The position numbers and the translations under genes were made by a program. Positions 9,053-20,039 of a stretch of DNA of 24,897 nucleotides are shown one piece after another. Source of the stretch: a virus (taxonomy: Duplodnaviria > Heunggongvirae > Uroviricota > Caudoviricetes); IMG/VR virus record IMGVR_UViG_2547132278_000021, positions 1 through 24,897 of that record; one strand, given 5' to 3'. How positions within the stretch are numbered: position 1 is the stretch's first letter; every line of letters begins with the position of its first letter. The notes beneath the pieces are model-generated. The model was given only the letters and a program-made list of their open reading frames with translations, was not told the origin of the DNA and ran no database searches.

Positions 9053-9129
9053 GTGGCATTAGCTCAGTTGGACAGAGCAACCGCCTTCTAAGCGGTTGGT
9101 CGCAGGTTCGAATCCTGCATGCCACGCCA
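9053..9129 (+). tRNA. tRNA-Arg (anticodon TCT, decodes AGA)
   Basis: 77-nt cloverleaf folded by hand: acceptor GTGGCAT/ATGCCAC, D stem GCTC/GAGC, anticodon stem ACCGC/GCGGT with loop CTTCTAA (U33, TCT, A37), T arm GCAGG-TTCGAAT-CCTGC, discriminator G, encoded CCA. Confidence 0.9.
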
Positions 9130-14658: not shown

Positions 14659-15188
14659 TGGTTGCCTCCTTTGCGAAGCTGGGAGGCTAACTCATCACAT
14701 ATGTGCGTCAAAGAGCAAAGTTTGATTGATGGATGTTCGCGCATCATCTCCACCCCCTGTGCCCGTACTTCAGCCAGGAAAGCGTCGGTAGCTGGAATGG
14801 GCTTTTGTGGTGATATGGCTATGAGAATTGTCTCAAGGTCTGGATCCGTTTCCGCTGTTGGTACCCTGATATAACCCATCTGCACCCCATTCATGATGAA
14901 CCTGCGACGGTCATCACATATCGCCTTTAGCCCCGCATTCTCCGCAGCCAGCACCGAAAACTTCTCGTGTGCCAACTTAACAGCCGCATCAGCCTGCTTA
15001 ATTGACTCAATCGCTTTCTGCTGGTCTTCGGCCAGCGCATTAGCACGCACCAGTTGCACTTCCAGTTGCGTTGCCAAATCGCTGATCAGCTTTGCCACAC
15101 TGCGCATATCAACGGCACCACATTCTGCTTTCAGTTCCGAAGCCATCTCATGCCCGGCGGAAACTAACCCTTTGATATTACTTTCCAT
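14655..15188 (-). CDS. Hypothetical protein (177 aa), coiled-coil N-terminal half
   Basis: ATG 15188 preceded by GAGGG; no recognisable catalytic motif. Confidence 0.5.
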   Translation of the reverse strand: MESNIKGLVSAGHEMASELKAECGAVDMRSVAKLISDLATQLEVQLVRANALAEDQQKAIESIKQADAAVKLAHEKFSVLAAENAGLKAICDDRRRFIMNGVQMGYIRVPTAETDPDLETILIAISPQKPIPATDAFLAEVRAQGVEMMREHPSIKLCSLTHICDELASQLRKGGNQ

Positions 15189-15249
15189 CTTTACCCTCGC
15201 TTATCCACATAACTTATTGATTACATTGATAACTAAAAAGATCGTCGAT

Positions 15250-15711: not shown

Positions 15712-16512
15712 TTACTTGATAAATCCTGCCGCCTTTCCCCGCCTGTATTCCTCCATCAGCCACTGCGCCGGTGTTATTCCCCCAAGGGTGGCGGCGTTAG
15801 GCATGCACCCGAAACTTCGCCCTGGTGGATGGTAAACGTCTCTCCCTGTGTCCGGAGGTGTACTCATGGGCTCTGGCTTTGCCTGTATGCTGATCACCGG
15901 ATCGGGTATCTGCTGTCCGGAAGCCACCTTTTTCGCCCAATCATCGAGCAGCCTGCGCGCGTGTTTCTCAACCTCAATCTCGCTAAGCTGGCGCTGATAC
16001 ATTGCACGGCGGGTATCACATACGACCCAGTACATAACCGGATGTCGCCACGGGAATCTTTCGGGACCACCAGGATATAAACTTTTTTCCTTGCTGTACC
16101 GGTGAAACTCCGCCATCACATCGTCAATGGTGACGCCAAGAACCATCTTGCTGTCTTTGCACCACTTGATAAATTGCCCTGGCGACGGCCAGAACGGAGA
16201 TTCACTGGCGCGGGCGTGGCGCATACCAGCAGAAACCTGTTCACGGGTTCGGATCCCCCCTTCGGCAAACGCAGCAATCCACTGCTGTTTTGCAGCAACT
16301 TCCTGCTCTGGCGTCTTCAGGTTGGTTACCACTGCCGCCGGAAACAGTTGTTTCAACTGTTTGAAAAGGGCATCAACAAGCCTCTCTGCTGACATGTTCA
16401 CCACATTGTCATTGTTGACGTACTGATGCTCATAACCTGACATGCGAGAAAGGGCTTCTCCGTCACGGTTTTGTATCGCGGTAAAAACGTTGTTCACAAG
16501 AAATCCTCCCAC
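15712..16512 (-). CDS. Lambda P-like replication protein (helicase loader), 266 aa; start codon uncertain
   Basis: QWIAAFAEGGIRTREQVSAGMRHARASESPFWPSPGQFIKWCK parallels the lambda P core (QWVLAFRENGITTMEQVNAGMRVARRQNRPFLPSPGQFVAWCR, recalled from memory). Track start is a GTG overlapping the O-like gene 3' end. Confidence 0.8.
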   Translation of the reverse strand: MGGFLVNNVFTAIQNRDGEALSRMSGYEHQYVNNDNVVNMSAERLVDALFKQLKQLFPAAVVTNLKTPEQEVAAKQQWIAAFAEGGIRTREQVSAGMRHARASESPFWPSPGQFIKWCKDSKMVLGVTIDDVMAEFHRYSKEKSLYPGGPERFPWRHPVMYWVVCDTRRAMYQRQLSEIEVEKHARRLLDDWAKKVASGQQIPDPVISIQAKPEPMSTPPDTGRDVYHPPGRSFGCMPNAATLGGITPAQWLMEEYRRGKAAGFIK

Positions 16513-17357
16513 GCTTCAGGGCTGTTCCAGTGCGGAACGTTGTTATCAGGTAATGTTGATTGCTTCTGTCTGCTAATCTGCAGCCGCCTTGCCAGCTTCT
16601 GCTCCCACTGTGCCTGATGGTATGCCTTACCCTCAGCCATCCAGTAAATTCTGAACTCTGCAAGTTCCTGTGCCGTTGGCAGACTGTCCAGGTAGATTCC
16701 CTGCAATGAGCTTTTCCGAAGAAAGTCATCTGATGGCTGCCATTGTTCATGCATGACAAATTTGCCTAATTGCCCTGGCCCACCAGGAGGAACAAAGTTA
16801 TTCATCACGGCGTTGTTTGCGCCGGGGTCATGAGGCACAGAATCCCCGGTTTTTGTCCTGCTCTCCCTCTCTTGGTTAAATGACTGGTTATATGACTGGT
16901 TCTGGATCCCGTTTTTGGGATCATTCAACATCCCGTTTTTGGGATCATTCAACATCCCGTTTTTGGGATCATTCAACATCCCGTTTTTGGGATCATTCAA
17001 CATCCCGTTTTTGGGTATATTCCCGTTTTCGGGAACATTACCGTTTTCGGGTTCATTACCCCCTTCCCGGTTGCCTTTAATGTTCCCTTTTTTGGTTATA
17101 TTAAGAGAGAAAACCCGTACTCTTTTCGTCGCCCCCTTTCTCTCTCCGGTATCTGAAATAAGCCCCATTTTCATGAGCGATATAAGCCCGGCCTGCACGG
17201 TTTTTTTATTCAGGCAAGTGTCTTTAACGAGGCGTTCTATGCTGGGGTAGCAGAGGTTATATTCATCGGCTCTGTCAGCCATCGAGAGCAGTATGAGCTT
17301 TAATGACGAGCTACCTGGATCTGTCTCCCAGGCCCAATCTGTTGCATGTCTGCTCAT
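16494..17357 (-). CDS. Lambda O-like replication initiator (287 aa) with internal origin repeats
   Basis: N-terminal winged-helix-like region (LKLILLSMADRADEYNLCYPSIERLVKDTCLNKKTVQAGLISL), central PKNGMLND repeats encoded by the iterons, and a C-terminal domain. GGAGA Shine-Dalgarno before ATG 17357. Confidence 0.8.
   Translation of the reverse strand: MSRHATDWAWETDPGSSSLKLILLSMADRADEYNLCYPSIERLVKDTCLNKKTVQAGLISLMKMGLISDTGERKGATKRVRVFSLNITKKGNIKGNREGGNEPENGNVPENGNIPKNGMLNDPKNGMLNDPKNGMLNDPKNGMLNDPKNGIQNQSYNQSFNQERESRTKTGDSVPHDPGANNAVMNNFVPPGGPGQLGKFVMHEQWQPSDDFLRKSSLQGIYLDSLPTAQELAEFRIYWMAEGKAYHQAQWEQKLARRLQISRQKQSTLPDNNVPHWNSPEAWEDFL
16906..17001. repeat. Candidate replication origin iterons: four perfect 24-bp direct repeats (ATCCCGTTTTTGGGATCATTCAAC), with degenerate copies to ~17060
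   Basis: Seen directly in sequence. Each unit carries an ATCCC...GGGAT dyad. Location inside the initiator gene mirrors lambda ori. Confidence 0.75.
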
Positions 17358-17678: not shown

Positions 17679-17700
17679 GAAAAGACCGCCGGATGGCGGT
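17679..17700 (-). terminator. Intrinsic terminator after the Cro/CII-like gene (tR1-like position)
   Basis: Perfect 7-bp stem GACCGCC / GGCGGTC with loop, followed on the minus strand by TTTTC. Confidence 0.5.
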
Positions 17701-17723
17701 CTACAGAGGTTTGTGGCTGGATA

Positions 17724-17954: not shown

Positions 17955-17990
17955 AGCTATTGCCTGATATTTATTTCAGATAATAAATAT

Positions 17991-18053
17991 TCACCCATAA
18001 GGTAACAAAAATCAAGGATAGTTACCTATGAGGTGCATTTACCTGTTGGGTAA
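17991..18053. promoter_or_regulatory. Immunity-region operator cluster (OR-like): TCACC-CATAA-GGTAA (17991-18005), TTACC-TATGA-GGTGC (18022-18036), TTACC-TGTTG-GGTAA (18039-18053)
   Basis: Three dyads in the 154-bp divergent intergenic region between the cro-like and repressor genes. Candidate cro promoter hexamers TTGTTA/TATTAT overlap the first site. Confidence 0.65.
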
Positions 18054-18108: not shown

Positions 18109-18693
18109 ATGAAAAGTATCCAGGACGTCCGCAGGCAAAATCTCAACGACTTGATCGACCGTGAATTCAATGGTGTTCAGACGCGGATGGCAGAAAAACT
18201 TGGAACTCAGGCAAATCTGGTAAACCGCTGGGCTCTTGGCAAGAAGGTTATCGGCGACCAGGTTGCGCGAAAAATTGAAGCTGCCGCCAATAAACCACGT
18301 AACTGGCTTGATATCGATCGCTCGCTTTCTCAAGAAGGTTTTCAGCCTGTCGGCCCGAGTGATATAGGTCAGCTGGCTGCTCACAACCTGGAACGCTGGA
18401 TGAGCGAAAGCCGCGACCTTTCAACGCAGGGAAAACTACACCGCGCATCCGGCGTCGCCCAGGTGACAATCAGCCGCCTGTTAAACAATGAGGTCAGCGT
18501 TTCCATTTCCACCCTGGAGAATGTTGCATCCGCATTCGGGCGTCATGGCTATGAATTACTGATTCACCCGCACGACCCTGCGACTATCAACTATGACCGC
18601 TCGCGCTACGCATTGTTACCCGAAACCGAGAAAGCAAAGATCGAAAGTTACATTGAATTTGTCATCAACCAGAACGAAAAAAGCAAACAATAA
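18109..18693 (+). CDS. Phage immunity repressor candidate: tandem double-HTH (XRE-type) protein with no LexA/S24-like cleavage domain (194 aa)
   Basis: Two HTH-like segments (TRMAEKLGTQANLVNRWALGKK and LHRASGVAQVTISRLLNNEV); divergent from the early-right operon; followed by a strong terminator. Confidence 0.65.
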   Translation: MKSIQDVRRQNLNDLIDREFNGVQTRMAEKLGTQANLVNRWALGKKVIGDQVARKIEAAANKPRNWLDIDRSLSQEGFQPVGPSDIGQLAAHNLERWMSESRDLSTQGKLHRASGVAQVTISRLLNNEVSVSISTLENVASAFGRHGYELLIHPHDPATINYDRSRYALLPETEKAKIESYIEFVINQNEKSKQ

Positions 18694-18846: not shown

Positions 18847-19008
18847 ATGCAGTGGAAAATCATCAACGGTTGGTACTGCGTTACTGCATGCGGATTCATG
18901 AGCTGGAAGTTCCGCACCTTACAGGAAGGCATTAAGTGGGCTTTCGTCAGCAAAGAAGCTCGCGATGTGGCCAACGATAACGAGATATGGGAGGAGGTTA
19001 GCAAATGA
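18847..19008 (+). CDS. Small Trp-rich protein (53 aa), first gene of the early-left operon; not in the ORF track
   Basis: ATG 18847 with GAGGT Shine-Dalgarno 8 nt upstream; stop TGA overlaps the next gene's ATG (ATGA). Translation MQWKIINGWYCVTACGFMSWKFRTLQEGIKWAFVSKEARDVANDNEIWEEVSK. Confidence 0.5.
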   Translation: MQWKIINGWYCVTACGFMSWKFRTLQEGIKWAFVSKEARDVANDNEIWEEVSK

Positions 19009-20039
19009 GTGAATTATCAATCATCGAAATCACACCAGACATGGCACCAAGAATTTACGTTGAAAAAGGGCTGGAAAAGTTTCTCGAGCAGATCCGTGAA
19101 GGTGTTAATGAAGTGCCTGACATTAGCACAGACAAAGGCAGAAAGCGCATTGCATCTCTGGCTGCGAAGGTTTCAAGAAGTAAAACAGCGGTAGAAAAAC
19201 CAGGACGTGATTATCTTAAACGCCTGAAAGAACAGCCGAAAGTAGTTGAAGCAGAGTTACGACGCTTCGTAACCGAATGCGATCGGCTTCGTGATGAAGT
19301 ACGCCGCCCACTCACCGAGTGGGAAAATGCTGAGAAATTACGCACTGAAGCACTGCAACAACGCCTGACAAATTTGCGAGCACTAGCTGACGTGATCGAT
19401 CTCTCCGGAAACTACTTGCCATCATCTGACATTCAGGAACGAATTCAAGAGGCTAAATCAGTAGCACTTGATGAAAGTTGGCAGGAGTACGCAGCAGAAG
19501 CTGGAGTAGCCAAGGATTCAACCATCCAGAAACTGGAAGAATCACTCGCAGTAGCTCAAAAACGCGAGCATGAAGCCGCTGAGCTGGAGCGACTTCGCAA
19601 AGAAGCGGAGGAAAAAGCGCGCATTGAGCGAGAAGAGAATATCCGCCGGGAAGCTGCTGAACAGGCCAGGCTCGAAGCTGAACAAAAAGCGAAAGCTGAA
19701 ATTGAGGCTGCGGCACGCCTGGCGGCGGAAGAAAAAGCACGTGCTGAAGTAGCAGAACGTCAGCGAATTGAAGCAGAGCAGCGTGCACGACGCCAAAAAG
19801 AAGAAGCCGTTGCCGAGGAACGCCGACGCCAAGAGGCGGCAGAAAAAGCCCGCCTTGACGAACAGAAGCGTATCGCCGACGAAGAAGCGCGCCGAGCTGC
19901 AGATAAAGAGCATCGCCGTACCGTTAACCGCAGAGTAATCGCAGATCTGATAGCCCAAGGCATACCCGAAGAATTCGCGCAGAAAGCAATGTTGGCTATC
20001 GCTGGCGGCAAAGTGCAGGACGCGTATATCAAATATTGA
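19005..20039 (+). CDS. Hypothetical coiled-coil protein (344 aa) of the early/recombination operon
   Basis: Strong GGAGGAGG Shine-Dalgarno; ~110-aa N-terminal domain, long E/A/R/K-rich heptad region, short C-terminal domain. Confidence 0.6.
   Translation: MSELSIIEITPDMAPRIYVEKGLEKFLEQIREGVNEVPDISTDKGRKRIASLAAKVSRSKTAVEKPGRDYLKRLKEQPKVVEAELRRFVTECDRLRDEVRRPLTEWENAEKLRTEALQQRLTNLRALADVIDLSGNYLPSSDIQERIQEAKSVALDESWQEYAAEAGVAKDSTIQKLEESLAVAQKREHEAAELERLRKEAEEKARIEREENIRREAAEQARLEAEQKAKAEIEAAARLAAEEKARAEVAERQRIEAEQRARRQKEEAVAEERRRQEAAEKARLDEQKRIADEEARRAADKEHRRTVNRRVIADLIAQGIPEEFAQKAMLAIAGGKVQDAYIKY

Follow-up and report, generated by a model that had tools for sequence, protein, structure and literature searches.

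The window analysed here, a DNA stretch of 24,897 nucleotides (positions 1 to 24,897 of IMG/VR record IMGVR_UViG_2547132278_000021), is a phiV10/epsilon15-like (Uetakevirus) prophage of Escherichia coli. On its minus strand lies a replication initiator gene of 287 amino acids (16494..17357), composed of an N-terminal HTH_36 domain, a linker made of repeats and a DnaT-like C-terminal domain. The linker is encoded by an array of eight iteron-like sites (16903..17102, minus strand). We consider this array very likely to be the replication origin of the prophage, placed inside the gene of its cognate initiator in the manner of phage lambda. This assignment of origin function is drawn from sequence features and is well supported by comparison with related genes.

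Tandem Repeats Finder (TRF) reports two blocks in this region. The first, at 16906-17015, has a period of 24 bp, 4.6 copies, 100% matches and a score of 220, with the consensus ATCCCGTTTTTGGGATCATTCAAC on the plus strand, and is the part of the array with variable copy number. The second (17005-17060, period 18, 3.1 copies, 84% matches) holds three degenerate sites spaced by 18 bp, translated as PENGNV or PENGNI, and includes the perfect palindrome TTCCCGTTTTCGGGAA. A repeat search of the window finds eight copies of the 19-nt core TCCCGTTTTTGGGATCATT from 16907 to 17102, with spacings of 24, 24, 24, 24, 18, 18 and 45 bp.

On the coding strand the sites follow the consensus AAT-RWW-CCC-R-AAAAC-GGKA, seven of them strongly and one weakly. 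Individual sites are at 16903-16925, 16927-16949, 16951-16973, 16975-16997, 16999-17021, 17017-17039, 17035-17057 and 17080-17102, all on the minus strand. The weak eighth site, AATATAACCAAAAAAGGGA (17084..17102), is the promoter-proximal one; it matches the repeat family at 74% and falls within the least stable 30-bp stretch of the gene. All eight share one orientation, with a short dyad around an A-tract, AATnnnCCCRAAAACGGGA. The form ATCCC(N6)GGGAT is found in all four perfect 24-bp units, the fifth copy (17002-17017) has lost the right arm of the dyad (GGGTA) and the sixth (17020-17035), TTCCCG TTTT CGGGAA, is more fully palindromic.

With at most one mismatch allowed, the word CCCRAAAACGG is found 8 times in the 24.9-kb window. 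In seven cases the match is exact, and these seven are all on the minus strand and inside 16909-17051. Shuffled sequences contain 0.73 matches on average, with none of 100 shuffles reaching 8.

In the 287-residue open reading frame (ORF), the array is translated as NEPENGNVPENGNIPKNGMLNDPKNGMLNDPKNGMLNDPKNGMLNDPKNGIQNQSYNQSFNQ, with four exact copies of PKNGMLND, and its context in the protein is PENGNVPENGNI-PKNGMLND x4-PKNGIQNQSYNQSFNQ. This position corresponds to the linker between the HTH_36 and DnaT domains. Since the units of 24 and 18 bp are whole codons, they appear in the protein as the peptide repeats PKNGMLND and PENGNx, and each site gained or lost therefore alters the linker by 8 or 6 residues. 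The first-pass annotation had described four perfect 24-bp repeats with degenerate copies inside the initiator gene, an ATCCC...GGGAT dyad within them and four tandem PKNGMLND units in the linker. All of this is borne out, the repeats being 4.6 perfect units, three at 18 bp and a single weak one. Two plus-strand ORFs, 16880..17080 (66 residues) and 16915..17250 (111 residues, with SRFWDHST and similar repeats), were rejected as genes, being stop-free antisense readings of the repeat. About 50 bp downstream of the array there is a lone iteron-like word, GACAAAAACCGGGGAT (16842-16857, minus strand, peptide RTKTGD), with a spacer longer by one base; in relatives its codon varies between T, S, N and A, the N form giving ACAAAAAACGGGGAT.

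A peptide that repeats so regularly could be what is selected. Under this explanation PKNGMLND would form a flexible or interaction-prone linker, with slippage adjusting its length, and the dyads in the DNA would have no significance of their own. The whole-codon units, which always keep the frame, fit this idea, and so does the presence of at least two PKNG-like linker peptides in 97 of the 119 full-length proteins found among the best 150 matches to the N-terminal domain. Linker length may also affect the reach between the DNA-bound N-terminal domain and the C-terminal domain, and the additional 13 residues of the O protein of Shiga toxin (Stx) phages have been discussed as a spacer (PMC7466680). 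Codon usage points the other way, with an extreme use of the rare codons CCC and GGG. All seven proline codons in the array are CCC, compared with 10 of 144 in the other genes of the prophage, and 8 of its 11 glycine codons are GGG, compared with 36 of 211. Furthermore, the similar-looking sites of lambda are mutually out of frame.

Evidence on this point also comes from a survey of 79 loci, each from a different bacterial species, for the class A motif CC[CG][AG]AAA[ACT][CT][GA]G. Between nucleotides 240 and 600 of the gene, we found 103 matches on the coding strand versus 4 on the opposite strand. The density in this segment is 3.65 per kb, versus 0.02 per kb per strand over the 222 kb outside it (approximately 180-fold). 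The matches are distributed over the three frames as 74/24/5, read as PKNG, QKR(D/N) and PKT(E/G), and 18 loci use at least two reading frames inside one gene. The same is seen in the 119 full-length proteins, with the frame-shifted QKRD form in 54 and the PKT form in 31.

Because the same word is kept in three frames, in one orientation and at one place in the gene, selection acts on the DNA and not on the peptide. The odd, low-complexity N-x-P-K-N-G linkers are a consequence of this selection, as revealed by the three-frame conservation. One DNA word that encodes peptides as unrelated as PKNG, QKRD and PKTE, often in a single gene, together with the orientation bias of 103 to 4, makes a role as protein linker highly improbable.

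Next, we looked at how far the repeats extend among homologues. The first-pass annotation had held that the idea of an origin would fall if otherwise conserved homologous genes lacked them. They are found at the same place of the gene down to approximately 40% protein identity, including in Vibrio, Edwardsiella, Acinetobacter and Pseudoalteromonas. Relatives of the N-terminal domain at 37-49% identity have the same kind of repeat in the same place: four perfect copies of CCGAAAACGGTACTTTGAATAGGC in Vibrio phage H20, three copies of AATGATCCCAAAATTGGGATTTTG in Edwardsiella phage GF-2, and repeats of the same kind in PPompW and Acinetobacter AP22. Site arrays of this kind occupy the same position in hundreds of divergent homologues and are conserved as DNA. 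A query with the 95-residue N-terminal domain retrieved 3793 cluster representatives (clusters at 50% identity) at E <= 1e-3, and 593 at E <= 1e-10. One family representative of 361 residues (P0160) has a linker with three copies of a block of about 33 residues, ETVPKAEPLNSTEIGMVPKTESSRKRNHPEIGR, which contains several frame-shifted iteron words.

The type of site varies along with the N-terminal subtype, and we claim this co-variation at subtype level only. In 32 loci with the Acinetobacter subtype (the longer match, 1501-1776), the motif is CCAAYRNYGG instead, again read in three frames, as SPNNG, VPTTE and FQQRN (56/42/8). Acinetobacter loci with the shorter subtype retain the class A motif, of the CCCAAAAACGG type. 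In the Acinetobacter prophages concerned (L108-L166), the different iteron of the former subtype is TCCCAAYAAYGGRAC.

These patterns also bear on another proposal, in which the array would play no part in replication and would be a neutral minisatellite prone to slippage, or else an RNA or terminator structure. Its inner copies are perfect and its outer ones degenerate, and copy number is polymorphic, as would be expected of a minisatellite. RNA folding of both strands is better than that of shuffled sequences (z around -4.3), and the plus strand has four terminator-like hairpins (TGGGAT-N8-ATCCCG, 16916-17007), formed by neighbouring half-sites and each followed by TTTTT. Nevertheless, the hairpins have weak stems, of 6 bp including 3 G-C pairs, and we judge both hairpins and folding scores to be a by-product, since dyads in tandem produce them automatically. 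A neutral repeat is also hard to reconcile with an 11-nt core that is kept at the same gene position across gammaproteobacterial orders, in proteins of 40% identity, and with a motif that switches together with the N-terminal subtype. We therefore give this proposal very little credence.

As for the protein itself, Pfam assigns HTH_36 to residues 18-67 (2e-10) and DnaT to residues 200-268 (1.3e-15), and the whole protein matches PHROG 1032, "replication initiation protein", at 3.5e-117. The N-terminal DNA-binding domain (residues 1-86; 17100..17357, minus strand), delimited by alignment, is the predicted iteron reader, and HTH_36 is present in 77 of 77 homologues. The 120 homologous proteins listed are 91-100% identical to the query, mostly at least 95%, and too similar for a useful alignment. 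The DnaT-like C-terminal domain (residues 197-281; 16515..16769, minus strand) was located with phmmer against the PDB, where residues 196-281 align with the E. coli DnaT chains 9zbt_D, 6aep_A and 4ou6_A (E around 1e-20).

What is shared with E. coli DnaT (primosomal protein I) is this C-terminal single-stranded DNA (ssDNA)-binding domain and nothing beyond it. Full membership in DnaT was rejected: the NCBIfam model for primosomal protein DnaT (NF002770) matches residues 197-280 only, at 5e-24 and 84.8 bits, far under its cut-off of 201. Database names such as "primosomal protein" or "DnaT" are misleading for a phage initiator, because a single domain is shared with DnaT. An identical protein is on record at NCBI, named "DnaT-like ssDNA-binding domain-containing protein".

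In the 77 homologues, HTH_36 is universal and the C-terminal part is DnaT in 8, Phg_2220_C in 5, DnaA_N in 2, or unassigned. The HTH_36 domain always travels with the repeats, and the C-terminal domains are exchangeable. This is clear in two proteins with the same N-terminal family at 48-49% identity, GF-2 gp62 ("replication initiation O-like") and gp38 of Vibrio anguillarum phage H20. Both have the same class of in-gene repeat (AATGATCCCAAAATTGGGATTTTG three times and CCGAAAACGGTACTTTGAATAGGC four times, perfect), followed by a 12-13-bp repeat element read as GTQNQS.., and neither has a DnaT-like C-terminal domain. In H20 the C-terminal region is unrelated and without Pfam match. GF-2 gp62 (L085, 1501-2343) is a natural chimera that joins the N-terminal domain, iterons and 12-mer element of this family to a lambda O-type C-terminal domain (62% identity to lambda O residues 156-299), with a P gene downstream. 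The junction is directly after the repeats, matching the end of the lambda origin. No origin is annotated in the retrieved stretches of the GF-2 and H20 records.

In lambda, O dimers bind the iterons, bend the DNA and open an adjacent A+T-rich tract of 40 bp, after which P brings DnaB (PMC5043065). The four lambda iterons, ATCCCTCAAAACGAGGGA and variants, occupy the central part of gene O on its coding strand, with spacings of 20, 24 and 23 bp (lambda annotation; PMC5043065), and begin at codon 117, directly after the Phage_rep_O domain. Our array has the same layout, with dyad sites for the initiator in its own gene, on the coding strand and directly after a winged-helix N-terminal domain. 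The sites are also alike, ATCCCTCAAAACGAGGGA in lambda and ATCCCAAAAACGGGAT here, the latter resembling shortened lambda iterons. Further similarities are a gene for a P-type DnaB loader downstream (31% identity to lambda P), the location in the early operon beside a divergent repressor, and a number of sites that varies among relatives and alters protein length, as in lambda and its Stx variants (933W, P27).

There are also differences from lambda. There are 7-8 sites here versus 4-6, and the core is 14-16 bp versus 18-19 bp. The spacings here are whole codons and give a true peptide repeat, which lambda lacks because its iteron spacings are not multiples of three. The N-terminal domain is HTH_36 and not Phage_rep_O, and the C-terminal domain is DnaT-like and not of the O type. 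Finally, no purine-asymmetric, A+T-rich tract of 40 bp is evident here, and three 12-bp repeats take its position. The first-pass annotation had called the protein O-like and the arrangement that of lambda ori. The architecture agrees with this, as do the dyad repeats in one orientation inside the initiator gene, but homology to O is at most remote and confined to the N-terminal domain, and a lambda-type A+T-rich tract is not evident.

Iteron plasmids with theta replication (P1, F, RK2, R6K, pSC101) offer another comparison. Their initiators are winged-helix proteins, and their replicon-specific sites lie by an unwinding region that contains short direct repeats, such as the 13-mers of RK2 (PMC5043065). 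An array of initiator sites near short direct repeats and a winged-helix initiator are common to both. In the plasmids, however, the sites bind monomers, are phased with the helix and lie outside the rep gene with DnaA boxes, whereas here dyads at 18 and 24 bp lie inside the gene with no DnaA-box or IHF consensus nearby. Membership in the iteron-plasmid Rep/origin class was rejected for these spacings and this position, and for a sole DnaA box that is 1.7 kb away.

The three 12-bp direct repeats, CAGAACCAGTCA, TATAACCAGTCA and TTTAACCAAGAG (16869..16904, minus strand; TRF 16873-16901, period 12), are translated as QNQSYNQSFNQE. They sit directly after the last iteron, where lambda has its A+T-rich tract. 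Most of the 63 homologues (of 85) that could be anchored likewise have, just after the last iteron, 2-3 copies of an AGAAYC repeat spaced by 12-13 bp (loci L084-L167). In 38 of these 63 one spacing is 13 bp, which places the copies in two reading frames (QNQS and EPV; QNL and ES). Because the same word is read in two frames, this element is conserved as DNA too. It goes with the N-terminal cassette and not with the C-terminal domain, and it matches no known factor consensus. In Acinetobacter the AGAAYC repeats are followed by TAAAAATAAAAA. Reading the 12-bp repeats as iteron half-sites was rejected, a by-eye match of 5/12 being unconvincing.

In terms of duplex stability, the least stable 30-mer of the gene is 17075-17104, with a nearest-neighbour free energy of -32.1 against a gene mean of -40.2 (standard deviation 2.6). 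The segment 16867-16896 (-34.9) is the fourth least stable 30-mer in the scanned segment. The least stable 30-mers adjoining the array thus flank it on both sides, and are weaker than that of lambda, where the minimum (-30.3) comes directly after iteron 4. We regard the 12-bp repeats at 16869-16904 as the best candidate for an unwinding (or second binding) element, and 17075-17126 as an alternative candidate for the opening segment. No DnaA-box or IHF consensus was found near the array; the sole DnaA box in the window, at 15201, is 1.7 kb off and at chance frequency.

Copy number of the perfect units is highly variable. The first-pass annotation had proposed comparing it among related prophages, and the number of PKNGMLND units was found to vary from 2 to 7. 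Among 82 close relatives, approximately 75 have two copies, five have three, one has four as in the window (L002) and one has five. The protein database adds a seven-unit allele of 311 residues. The 18-bp unit is also variable (relatives L009-L011), as is the 12-bp unit, and each gene has between 5 and 9 predicted sites. The four-unit allele of the window is uncommon but not unique, given the identical protein on record. We attribute the range of 2 to 7 copies to slippage or to unequal recombination between the perfect units. A similar case is known in Stx phages, which have 6 iterons versus 4 in lambda and an O protein that is 13 residues longer (PMC7466680). Three E. coli alleles (P0001, P0027 and P0024) have seven PKNGMLND units or a duplication of a larger block, NGNVTENGNIPKNGMLNDPK, showing that the array rearranges by more than single-unit slippage.

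Such variability raises the possibility that the sites are real initiator sites used mainly for control, by titration, autoregulation, handcuffing, or incompatibility and exclusion of co-resident prophages, with opening and loading taking place elsewhere. The range of 5-9 sites per gene with up to 7 perfect units, and the lack of a clear AT-rich unwinding element adjoining the array, would suit this role, and ectopic copies of lambda ori are known to interfere with lambda growth (PMC4488673). On the other hand, we saw neither a further repeat cluster nor another origin-like feature in the window, where TRF reports only short, low-scoring repeats elsewhere, and the core motif is nowhere else in it. 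The array is also tied to the gene that precedes the helicase loader, as in lambda, and is flanked by the least stable 30-mers next to it. A role in control only is in our view unlikely, and it overlaps with the origin reading, because control and origin roles coexist in iteron replicons.

Several results weigh against the array being a lambda-style origin. The expected A+T-rich tract of 40 bp is not evident, with GC content of 32-45% around the array, and a meta-profile of 30 homologues gives no conserved AT peak. The spacings of 18 and 24 bp are out of phase with the DNA helix, as is also the case in lambda. A Pfam scan to E=10 gives no match of the window protein to Phage_rep_O (PF04492), for which lambda O itself scores 5.7e-36. 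In hhalign, a five-sequence profile aligns to lambda O weakly, with E 0.011 and a probability of 3.8%, over the helix and wing (residues 41-86 with 73-117). The AlphaFold2 single-sequence model of the initiator is unusable (mean predicted local distance difference test score, pLDDT, of 38.9), and the binding by dimers is therefore proposed from the dyad alone. Finally, no experiment on this initiator family was found in the searchable literature.

Regarding the relation to lambda O, BLASTP of the initiator gave a non-significant E-value of 0.083, and direct homology was rejected on the negative BLASTP and Pfam results and the weak hhalign match. Both proteins match the "O-like" PHROG profiles 678 and 345 in the same profile region, the window protein at 2.3e-9 and 3.9e-7 and lambda O at 1.7e-35 and 5.2e-17. 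Apart from the hhalign match, only these shared profiles suggest a distant kinship of the N-terminal domains.

If the array is indeed the origin, we can propose how it may operate, by analogy with lambda O and ori. The N-terminal winged-helix domains would bind the dyads as dimers and assemble into a multimeric nucleoprotein complex, in which the DNA is bent and put under strain. A less stable neighbouring segment would then open, the 12-bp repeats at 16869-16904 being favoured and 17075-17126 the alternative. The DnaT-like C-terminal domain may recruit the P-like loader carrying the host DnaB or hold the single strand once it is opened, or do both. The early promoter would drive transcription through the origin, as in lambda.

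On the minus strand, the order of features around the initiator is a promoter-like site, a cro-like gene, a terminator-like site, a small ORF, the initiator and the lambda-P-like loader. The promoter-like site of the early operon (17980..18008, minus strand) comes from a consensus scan alone, with 9 of 12 positions matching. The terminator-like site (17683-17702, minus strand) is at a place where phiV10 is annotated with a terminator. The loader, taken as the longest ORF (15712..16512, minus strand), matches Pfam Phage_lambda_P (PF06992) at 1.5e-56 and has 31% identity to lambda P over residues 8-206 (E 2e-35). Its annotated homologues in phiV10 and E. coli PS_131_S11 start at the equivalent of 16497, which gives a 4-nt overlap with the initiator stop codon. 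The divergent repressor gene (18109-18693) was assigned from Pfam and PHROG.

The initiator gene has 92-98% DNA identity to phages BP9, phiV10, PAS61 and others, and was found in 423 of 5426 complete E. coli genomes (approximately 8%). Its closest copy, at 99.0% identity, is in E. coli PS_131_S11, in a prophage beside guaA.

Some other features of the prophage were recorded. A tRNA-Arg gene (anticodon TCT) is located at 9053-9129 on the plus strand, within the prophage, and E. coli PS_131_S11 has one annotated at the equivalent place. A highly charged protein of 344 residues (19005-20039, plus strand), rich in Glu, Ala, Arg and Lys, sits downstream of the repressor gene and before the recombination genes; it belongs to PHROG 1376 (unknown function) and has a weak TolA-like match. 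The DnaA box, a perfect consensus TTATCCACA at 15201-15209, is in the 61 bp that separate the DUF1064 gene from the gene after it. Two IHF-consensus matches are at most 60 bp from it (region 15165-15222), each at chance frequency, yet all three are clustered.

A broader idea is possible, if on balance doubtful: that the HTH_36 N-terminal domain, the iterons and the 12-13-bp AGAAYC repeats together form a portable origin cassette, with a mode of opening unlike that of lambda, strand capture by the DnaT-like domain and a dial based on copy number. Sequence-specific 12-13-mer repeats, conserved in two frames, would here replace a passive A+T-rich tract. In the phiV10 group, the DnaT-like ssDNA-binding domain of the initiator would take hold of the opened strand, and the P-like loader would bring in DnaB afterwards. 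The number of perfect iterons (2-7) would evolve fast and act as a dial, setting replication strength or the incompatibility of co-resident prophages. Such a cassette, if real, would be common to thousands of protein clusters, in Gammaproteobacteria and beyond, and we found no description of one.

What we see is the expected lambda-type solution in a different, apparently undescribed initiator family, and the accepted picture of lambdoid origins is unchanged. Our literature search returned no iterons or origin described for phiV10, epsilon15, Uetakevirus, or initiators of the HTH_36/DnaT type. The array is a concrete candidate origin for phiV10/epsilon15-type prophages, carried by about 8% of complete E. 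coli genomes. The same holds for a large initiator family, of 3793 clusters, mislabelled "primosomal protein DnaT" or "helix-turn-helix protein". Furthermore, conservation in three frames is a clean and general test of selection at the DNA level versus the protein level in intragenic repeats. Lastly, the natural alleles with 2 to 7 iterons, together with chimeras carrying at least four kinds of C-terminal domain, are material for work on iteron number, the pairing of initiator and loader, replication efficiency and the compatibility of prophages.

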